In this document: positions 35,983 through 36,030 of the stretch, piece after piece
Position numbering within the stretch: position 1 is the stretch's first letter
Layout of the letters: each line of letters opens with the position of its first letter
Sequence record: PQ511150.1
Strand: one strand, 5' to 3'
DNA from: Escherichia phage NHEP29
Length of the DNA stretch: 64,000 nucleotides
Notes under the pieces: generated by a model
Seen by the model: the letters and a program-made list of their open reading frames with translations, nothing else
Told to the model about the DNA's origin: nothing
Databases searched by the model: none
Position numbers and translations under genes: made by a program

Positions 35983-36000
35983 TTTTATTTGATAGGGCTA

Positions 36001-36030
36001 CTATAACATAGCCCTATCTTGTTATAAACT
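36001..36030 (-). promoter_or_regulatory. early promoter inside 9-bp perfect inverted repeat
   Basis: Minus strand GTTTAT + 17 + TTATAG; flanked by GATAGGGCT...AGCCCTATC. Confidence 0.55.

Follow-up and report, generated by a model that had tools for sequence, protein, structure and literature searches.

Seven early promoters on the minus strand of a 64,000-nucleotide stretch of Escherichia phage NHEP29 DNA (sequence record PQ511150.1; this whole stretch is called the window) carry a predicted RNA hairpin that encloses the -10 element. The element is of a kind already described, the promoter-early stem-loop (PeSL) cassette of T4-type phages, and its hairpin is probably confined to read-through RNA from the upstream gene, where it would stand in for a separate terminator. 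PeSL-like cassettes that could act as RNA hairpins in read-through transcripts had been proposed in the initial annotation, and the proposal agrees with published accounts of such elements (PMC2839356, PMC4122927); knowledge of the element's kind is unchanged by the results. New here is quantitative evidence for the hairpin as a read-through RNA feature that substitutes for a separate terminator at abutting genes. The published promoter-terminator view is refined in that the sense strand is optimised for folding, a U-run is absent, the hairpin is restricted to abutting genes and a terminator rarely coexists with it.

Genome context

NHEP29 is a T-even-like phage of the T4 type. A 2.5-kb segment around the exemplar cassette, which lies between frd.2 and frd.1 downstream of gene 32, matched 711 phage records, the best being Escherichia phages NHEP36 and NHEP11 and other Mosigvirus (RB69-like) T4-type phages. 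RB69 is colinear with the whole window, from approximately 110.9 kb across the record end into rIIA and gene 39, with 93-97% identity in most aligned blocks and 82-85% in two variable blocks. Judged by these matches, the window is that of an RB69-like (Mosigvirus) T4-type phage. Its early and middle genes are on the minus strand, including the upstream neighbour of the exemplar, frd.2 (36029-36421), and the downstream neighbour, frd.1 (DUF5417; 35719-35967, ATG at 35967). No Rfam family was matched anywhere in the window.

The genes downstream of the cassettes are alt.-3 (DUF5498), 30.7, cd.2 (DUF7320), an ORF231c-like orphan, frd.1, ndd.1, an ORF270c-like orphan, asiA and ndd, the products of the last two having Pfam matches to AsiA (E 7e-33) and Ndd (E 4e-89). 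The small downstream ORF of unknown function that had been ascribed to each of eight listed sites was found at six of them; the other two promoters drive asiA and ndd.

Promoter cassettes with a hairpin around the -10 element

The cassettes share a GTTTAC-like -35 hexamer, a spacer of 17-18 nt, a TAnnnT hexamer mostly with an extended -10 TG, and an A/T-rich upstream region. At their 3' end, the window cassettes run into the Shine-Dalgarno sequence and start codon of the downstream gene. This T4-type consensus and the context, plus orthology to an annotated T4 promoter in the case of cd.2, suggest that they are early promoters. A generic sigma-70 scan of the AT-rich window gave no enrichment over shuffles (62 sites versus 55 +/- 8, and 26 versus 28 +/- 6). 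Hairpin energies and z-scores were obtained by RNA folding against shuffle controls. The seven hairpins enclosing a -10 element range from -12 to -19 kcal/mol with z-scores of -2.4 to -6.4, and their minimum-free-energy folds have loops of 4-8 nt and stems rich in A-U and G·U pairs. The -35 hexamer departs from GTTTAC at 36029 (GTTTAT) and 55760 (TTGTAC).

The exemplar cassette (35991..36029, minus strand, upstream of frd.1) has the -10 element inside an inverted repeat, as had been claimed for it, and folds at -18.7 kcal/mol (z -6.4). Its -35 element GTTTAT (36024-36029) overlaps the TAG stop codon of frd.2. The 5' arm GATAGGGCT is located at 36010-36018 and the 3' arm AGCCCTATC at 35991-35999, and the loop consists of ATGT and the -10 hexamer TATAGT (36000-36005). 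Read on the minus strand, the cassette is GTTTAT-aacaa-GATAGGGCT-atgt-TATAGT-AGCCCTATC-aaataaaagtgaaGGAGaataaaATG. Its paralogue (56493..56530, minus strand, -13.2 kcal/mol, z -2.6) lies upstream of an 87-aa ORF homologous to RB69ORF270c, with arms GTAGGACT (56511-56518) and AGTCCTAT (56493-56500), the -10 hexamer TATAGT at 56501-56506 and a compensatory G-C to A-T change. A terminator scan marks the exemplar and 56494-56517 as terminator-like on the plus strand.

The gene 30.7 cassette (20785..20826, minus strand, upstream of 30.7; -17.8 kcal/mol, z -4.6) has the -35 hexamer GTTTAC, arms TTGGTACAGG (20810-20819) and CCTGTACCAA (20785-20794), and TATTAT at 20798-20803. The cd.2 cassette (24891..24928, minus strand, upstream of cd.2; -12.6 kcal/mol, z -3.4) corresponds by orthology to Pe133295, an early promoter annotated in T4. 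Its arms GTAGAGTT (24909-24916) and AACTCTAC (24891-24898) surround TACTAT at 24899-24904, and in RB69 and G53 the arms are GGTGGAGTT and AACTCTACC with one G·U pair. Upstream of a 99-aa ORF homologous to RB69ORF231c, a further cassette (27019..27054, minus strand; -12.2 kcal/mol, z -2.4) carries the arms GGGAGC (27035-27040) and GCUCCU (27019-27024), with one G·U pair and TATAAT at 27025-27030. A paralogue that is 82% identical to it across 51 nt, and from which it differs by a compensatory G-C to A-U change, is the ndd cassette (55724..55760, minus strand, upstream of ndd; -13.9 kcal/mol, z -4.3), in which the -35 hexamer TTGTAC is followed by the arms TGAGAGC (55741-55747) and GCTCTCA (55724-55730) and by TATAAT at 55731-55736. 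The ndd.1 cassette (55983..56021, minus strand, upstream of ndd.1; -13.7 kcal/mol, z -4.0), which was absent from the earlier list, has its -35 element at 56021, arms GGTAGGATT (56002-56010) and AGTCCTATC (55983-55991) with two G·U pairs, and TATAGT at 55992-55997.

Sites at chance level, spacer hairpins and canonical terminators

The eight inverted repeats of the initial annotation are all literally present, and each of the eight coordinates was confirmed as the 3' end of the -10 element of a minus-strand GTTTAC-N17/18-TAnnnT site. Upon folding, six of these sites proved to be significant, stable hairpins (z -2.4 to -6.4), whereas 14256 and 50609 were at chance level (z +0.1 and -1.3), and the hairpin at 56021 had been missed. 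At the alt.-3 (DUF5498) promoter (14252..14286, minus strand), the listed 5-bp repeat GGATG/CATCC is unsupported and is outcompeted by a stable AACACAU-GGAU-GUGUGUU hairpin inside the spacer, between the -35 and -10 elements. Spacer hairpins between the boxes are also found at promoters 28460 (alc) and 29643 (rnlA). The 6-bp AT-rich repeat TTGATA/TATCAA at the asiA promoter (50598..50638, minus strand) folds at -5.2 kcal/mol. In related phages, the 30.7 arms are unchanged (RB69, G53, SF and T4), and the repeat at 50609 is broken (RB69, SF and T4).

The window also contains canonical terminators. After gene 32, GGGAGACUUCGGUCUCCC is followed by UUUU (36511..36528, minus strand) approximately 25 nt upstream of the frd.2 promoter 36479, which is without an embedded hairpin. 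Terminators at approximately 21305-21322 and at 53479-53494, both on the minus strand, precede promoters 21269 and 53453. Each of the hairpin-less promoters 21269, 36479 and 53453 is preceded by a terminator with a GC stem, a UUCG loop and a UUUU tail. The rnh promoter 39777 has neither a co-directional gene upstream nor a hairpin.

Enrichment and position of the hairpins in related phages

A set of 128 distinct early-promoter cassettes was assembled from the window, RB69, G53, SF, T4 and approximately 30 T-even-like IMG/VR loci. The latter were fetched with gp32 (80 loci, of which the approximately 30 T-even-like ones were used) and frd.1 (11 loci); a MotA query gave 2. A cassette was scored as carrying a hairpin if a perfect stem of at least 7 bp enclosed the start of the -10 element. 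Such stems are present in 28% of the 128 cassettes versus 1.4% of mononucleotide shuffles. When the enclosed point was slid from -45 to +45 in 5-nt steps, the frequency was at most 2% except for 24% at -5; a bump of 5-7% at -35 to -45 corresponds to separate upstream terminators. The compared cassettes are related sequences and their statistics overstate independence. After clustering at 75% identity or more, hairpins are counted in 16 of 67 clusters (binomial p ~2e-15). A chimera control, in which the 5' half of one cassette was joined to the 3' half of another, was inflated by cassette homology and gave way to the mononucleotide shuffles and the offset scan. About 60-70% of the early promoters have no inverted repeat, and 5-bp stems occur in approximately 6% of random promoter-like hits. 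As a class, the hairpin pattern is far above chance.

Conserved pairing and bias towards the sense strand

Orthologous promoters of the frd.1 region have differing arms, all of which are paired: GATAGGGCTA/TAGCCCTATC, ACAGGGTAAT/ATTACCCTGT, AGGGCTAT/ATAGCCCT, GGGTTAT/ATAACCC, GTTGATAGGGTA/TACCCTATCAAC and GGTGTAGAA/TTCTACACC. The paralogues within the window differ by compensatory changes, with GGGCT/AGCCC versus GGACT/AGTCC and GGGAGC/GCTCCT versus GAGAGC/GCTCTC. In an unselected alignment of 127 cassettes anchored on the -10 element, changes on both sides were seen in 108 cells versus 74 +/- 8.5 in column shuffles, with none of 500 shuffles reaching 108; among seven slid registers, the pairing register tested came out best. 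Shuffled columns of this alignment are still approximately 51% complementary around the -10 element, so the promoter consensus itself accounts for part of the complementarity. Internal stem positions that deviate from Watson-Crick pairing are G·T or T·G in 16 cases, A·C or C·A in 4 and other combinations in 5.

The sense RNA is more stable than the antisense RNA in 30 of 33 hairpin cassettes, by a mean of -2.8 kcal/mol, and no such bias is seen in cassettes without a hairpin (30 versus 36) or in shuffles. Since a duplex palindrome or operator would show no asymmetry of this type, the folded species is the sense RNA or, formally, the sense DNA strand. A general role as antisense terminator was considered and rejected: a T-rich antisense tail is found in only 6 of 36 cassettes, and the antisense fold is the weaker one in those 30 of 33.

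Relation of the hairpin to the upstream gene

A co-directional ORF lies upstream of all 36 hairpin cassettes and all 16 hairpin clusters. It ends between -1 and +12 nt from the -35 element in 35 of the 36 cassettes (67 nt in the other) and in 16 of 16 clusters, whereas in hairpin-less cassettes the distance is broad and bimodal (Mann-Whitney p 8e-6 on sequences and 5e-4 on clusters). About a third of the cassettes whose upstream gene abuts the -35 element lack a perfect stem of at least 7 bp. A separate terminator, defined as a hairpin followed by a T-run within 75 nt upstream, is combined with an embedded hairpin in 1 of 36 cassettes versus 33 of 91 hairpin-less cassettes that have such a terminator (Fisher p 4e-5 on sequences, 0.05 on clusters).

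On the sense strand, a U-run, taken as 5 or more T among the 8 nt that follow the stem, is missing after all 36 hairpins; each has 0-3 T, and the sense tails are A/C-rich, for example AAAUAAAA and CAAACAAC. The hairpin cassettes hence fall outside the definition of an intrinsic terminator as a GC-rich hairpin followed by a U-tract, and efficient intrinsic termination is doubtful because the hairpins are without a U-run. The embedded hairpin looks like a compact counterpart of the separate terminator hairpin.

Proposed role in read-through RNA

The arms of the hairpin occupy the two freely variable segments of the promoter, one being the second (3') half of the spacer and the other a stretch of 6-9 nt following the -10 element, which itself lies in the loop. 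Transcription is expected to start approximately 7 nt after the -10 element, at the conserved A of ...T-ATCAA, which is inside or just past the 3' arm. Because this predicted start leaves out the 5' arm and most of the 3' arm, the promoter's own mRNA should be unable to form the hairpin, which would arise only in RNA reading through from the upstream gene. There it may attenuate read-through, or serve as a 3' hairpin of the upstream cistron that blocks 3' exonucleases, or both. The exonuclease block would follow cleavage by RegB or RNase E/G in the next leader or Shine-Dalgarno sequence; by cutting GGAG Shine-Dalgarno sequences, RegB gives 3' exonucleases points of entry (PMC3014915). The hairpin would be embedded in the promoter where the upstream gene stops right at the -35 element, and a separate terminator would be used at roomier junctions. 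A genome-wide map of start sites or 3' ends for T4 was not found in a literature search.

A reading without termination is a tentative possibility, in which the hairpins would be read-through-specific RNA elements that act as 3'-exonuclease barriers or insulators and let neighbouring early cistrons decay independently. If these barriers are real, a layout rule would follow, by which an abutting promoter embeds the hairpin around its -10 element and a roomier promoter uses a separate terminator. In practical terms, the results offer an annotation rule for transcription units in RB69-like phages.

More speculatively, the loop between the arms could invert and so switch the promoter off. Exactly this inversion, in the loop of the cd.2 hairpin, is seen in an old T4 sequence. 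No flipped loop was present among the approximately 10 sequences of the cd.2 cassette that were examined, and five flipped-loop candidates from IMG/VR all turned out to be in normal orientation once their flanks were checked. A flank-free search for the flipped loop is uninformative, because its pattern is the reverse complement of the normal palindrome.

Gene gain and loss at promoter cassettes

Among the 20 dispersed direct-repeat families listed for the window, most of the high-ranking ones consist of promoter cassettes (D2-D5, D7, D11 and D14). Family D2 includes the pair of the exemplar and 56493..56530, and D14 includes the pair of 27019..27054 and 55760. The dispersed hairpin cassettes have a mutual identity of only 65-82% over 50-60 nt. 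Comparison with RB69, G53 and SF yielded eight early-region indels, of which two touch a promoter cassette, in neither case one with an inverted repeat. RB69ORF245c is absent from the window, the junction lying in the repeated leader and Shine-Dalgarno sequence ATCAACAA(A/C)ATGAGGAAA. A module with a 71-aa ORF (53060..53462, minus strand; ORF 53175-53387), located between gene 52 and motA, is flanked by a direct repeat of 84 nt with 93% identity (53060-53143 and 53379-53462; family D5). Each copy covers the sequence from the promoter spacer to the end of the third codon (MSK). G53 and SF have the module; RB69 lacks it, and there one cassette copy drives motA directly. By its sequence the 84-nt repeat is an obvious candidate substrate for mini-circle excision. 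The remaining six of the eight indels are at coupled gene junctions; among them are the gene for a DAHP synthase, an ORF of 115 aa that lies between td and frd and, in G53, one extra ORF beside frd.1.

Modules bounded by cassettes are visible in more distant relatives. In the metagenomic IMG/VR relative L004, two hairpin cassettes flank an additional frd.2 paralogue at a position where the window has one cassette. The cd.2 cassette is followed by cd.2 in one T4-like contig and by another ORF (MSEWFE...) in four others, and in T4 a 22-codon ORF is inserted between the cassette and frd.1. The notion that the cassettes drive gene shuffling finds partial support: clear modules of this kind occur in the distant relatives, and among near relatives only the two indels just described involve a cassette. 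Modular exchange at promoter cassettes is real; on the sequences compared, it appears to depend on the direct repeat of promoter and leader, with no visible part played by the hairpin. Copies of the promoter, leader and Shine-Dalgarno sequence would occasionally serve as recombination sites at which modules of a cassette and an ORF are gained or lost, a process for which the inverted repeat would not be needed. The cassettes mark compact, self-contained expression modules that are usable in phage engineering, a value that is modest.

Alternative explanations

The hairpins could be ordinary Rho-independent terminators that end the upstream gene, as described for the PeSLs of RB49 and phi1. They are found at gene ends, in place of canonical terminators, with energies of -12 to -19 kcal/mol, and a PeSL stem-loop of RB49 lowered lacZ expression as strongly as rrnB T1 (PMC2839356). 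The explanation is nevertheless unlikely, considering that a U-rich sense tail is present in 0 of 36 and the tails are A/C-rich, that the true terminators of the window combine GC stems with UUCG loops and UUUU tails, and that the hairpins fold with loops of 4-8 nt and many A-U and G·U stem pairs. That the repeats are functionless, arising by chance or as a by-product of the quasi-palindromic consensus (CTAT..TA..ATAG), perhaps sharpened by templated correction during replication, would fit the 51% of cells that pair after shuffling, the chance-level sites 14256 and 50609, and the 5-bp stems in approximately 6% of random promoter-like hits. It would not account for stems of at least 7 bp being 20 times more frequent than in shuffles and around the -10 element only, for arms that reach 9-12 bp beyond any consensus, for orthologues with unrelated arms that still pair, or for the tie between hairpins and the upstream gene end. 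For the seven strong sites chance is already disfavoured, and overall it is highly improbable.

A palindrome centred on the -10 element is a natural repressor site, and the shut-off of T4 early promoters is abrupt, with a mechanism that is incompletely understood (PMC3014915). The inverted repeat might accordingly act in duplex DNA, as the operator of a dimeric phage or host protein or as a cruciform, and shut off early promoters or modulate the opening of the -10 region. However, no arm motif is common to the cassettes (examples are TTGGTACAGG, GTAGAGTT, GAGAGC and GATAGGGCT), their register shifts, the loops spanning 9-15 nt, and cruciform extrusion is disfavoured once a loop reaches 10 nt. 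Some 60-70% of early promoters manage without a repeat, and both the far greater tolerance of G·T than of A·C and the better folding of the sense strand in 30 of 33 are meaningless for a duplex, making such a role very unlikely. A mainly recombinational function is quite unlikely too. Stalling, template switching or endonuclease VII cleavage would then make the inverted repeats hot spots that move modules of promoter and ORF between genomes; the L004 frd.2 paralogue between two hairpin cassettes, the cd.2 cassette joined to different ORFs across T4-like contigs, the T4 insertion before frd.1, the prominence of cassettes among dispersed repeats, the inverted cd.2 loop in the old T4 sequence and the RB49 mini-circle crossovers that were mapped within the loop (PMC2839356) are compatible with this. 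But both indels that touch a cassette, of eight, concern cassettes without an inverted repeat, crossover homology consists of the direct repeat of spacer, leader, Shine-Dalgarno sequence and first codons, and identity between the dispersed hairpin cassettes is low. Recombination also leaves the strand bias and the G·U tolerance unexplained. A hairpin that forms in read-through RNA and replaces a separate terminator remains the probable explanation.

Comparison with known systems

For the PeSLs of RB49 and phi1, promoter and terminator or attenuator activity was shown and mini-circle excision was found (Arbiol 2010, PMC2839356). The same authors reported G-T pairs in the stems and analogous, more AT-rich elements on T4 early promoters in T-even phages (PMC2839356). 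PeSLs were later catalogued in T4/PST and KVP40/nt-1, with the T4/PST consensus TTTACW-N17-TAYWAT and stems of the form AGNA-loop-TCNT, and were tied to exchanges in the ndd region (Comeau 2014, PMC4122927). That region is the one that holds the window sites 55731-56502. The window cassettes have the same order of an upstream stop codon in A/T-rich sequence, -35, approximately 17 nt, -10, stable stem-loop, Shine-Dalgarno sequence and start codon, and the same many dispersed copies per genome beside small ORFs, with G·T pairs in the stems. The stem-loop of RB49 is likewise most often located between the boxes or overlapping the -10 element, and the T4/PST consensus and stems match the TAGGA...TCCTA stems of the window. 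The RB49 stems differ in being polyG/polyC and shown to terminate, whereas those of the window are mixed or AT-rich without a U-run. The hairpin class of the window also sits almost wholly around the -10 element, and shuffling at its hairpin cassettes is less strongly supported by direct evidence than in the phage pairs of the literature.

With T4 early promoters (Hinton 2010, PMC2988021; T4 GenBank note, Pe133295), the cassettes share the hexamers, spacing, TGn and A/T-rich upstream region, and the T4 promoters of 30.7 and cd.2 are the direct orthologues of those at 20826 and 24928, identical arms included; the definition of these promoters, however, includes no inverted repeat. Rho-independent terminators are similar in forming a stable RNA hairpin at a gene end, and the distribution of the cassette hairpins is complementary to that of true terminators, but the cassette hairpins have no U-tract or UUCG tetraloop, are less GC-rich and overlap a promoter. 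REP elements of E. coli operons are intercistronic hairpins that stabilise 3' ends; they form a conserved sequence family and are not promoters. By analogy, the phage hairpins, which are also without a U-run and lie between cistrons, could block 3' exonucleases after downstream cleavage, but unlike REP they overlap promoters. Finally, the cassettes resemble the morons of lambdoid phages in being self-contained modules of promoter, gene and terminator for accessory genes, and differ from them in their flanks, since those of morons do not consist of conserved repeats, nor are they believed to promote their own movement (PMC2839356).

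A possible loop inversion at the T4 cd.2 promoter

In the GenBank record of T4, a stretch of 14 nt (133300-133313; 14301-14314 in the T4 sequence L099 compared here) is annotated as 'inverted complement of previously reported sequence'. These nucleotides are the exact loop, -10 element included, of the cd.2 promoter hairpin, which is closed by the arms GGTAGAG and CTCTACC and whose orthologue in NHEP29 lies at window 24891-24928 on the minus strand. The inverted loop in the earlier T4 sequence could be a sequencing or cloning artefact of old date, or it could be a real inversion via the inverted repeat. 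Among the approximately 10 sequences examined, no flipped cd.2 cassette was found, and all are in the active orientation.

Gene content around the cassettes and elsewhere in the window

Between cd.2 and cd, the window carries an ORF of 330 aa that belongs to the DAHP synthase I family (23520-24512, minus strand; Pfam PF00793, E 5e-75). With it, the phage would encode the enzyme that opens the synthesis of aromatic amino acids. The related phage SF has such an ORF, RB69 is without it, and in G53 it is annotated as a disrupted misc_feature.

Two further sites of ORF gain, loss or replacement were found, with no promoter cassette at the borders of either. A 115-aa ORF inserted between td and frd (34785-35132, minus strand) is present in SF and missing in RB69 and G53. 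A 64-aa ORF (19869-20063, minus strand) is missing in RB69, and G53 carries a different 662-bp segment at the adjoining stretch 20063-20344; the two intervals together form a small replacement hot spot. A tandem repeat was also observed in the hoc region (288-nt period; 2296-2840), and gene 34, encoding the proximal long tail fibre, contains repeats with a period of 108-120 nt (41239-41508).

Cassette modules and spacer hairpins in the window and in related phages

In the IMG/VR metagenomic relative L004, two hairpin cassettes, each with a stem of its own, flank an inserted, diverged 120-aa frd.2 paralogue (1010-1500), and the window has one cassette at the corresponding place.

A second class of hairpin, for example ACACC-aaggaa-GGTGT, is contained entirely within the promoter spacer. 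It occurs at the minus-strand promoters with -35 elements at 14286 (alt.-3), 28460 (alc) and 29643 (rnlA), and the TG of the extended -10 forms the end of the 3' arm. In T4, hairpins of this form precede rnlA and ndd.6. T4 also carries one promoter cassette of some 55 nt (GTTTACAAGTCCCTCGTGTTGTGTTATAGTAGTCTTACT...) twice, upstream of alt.-3 and of alc, approximately 13 kb apart; dispersed repeats of such length could be substrates for recombination.
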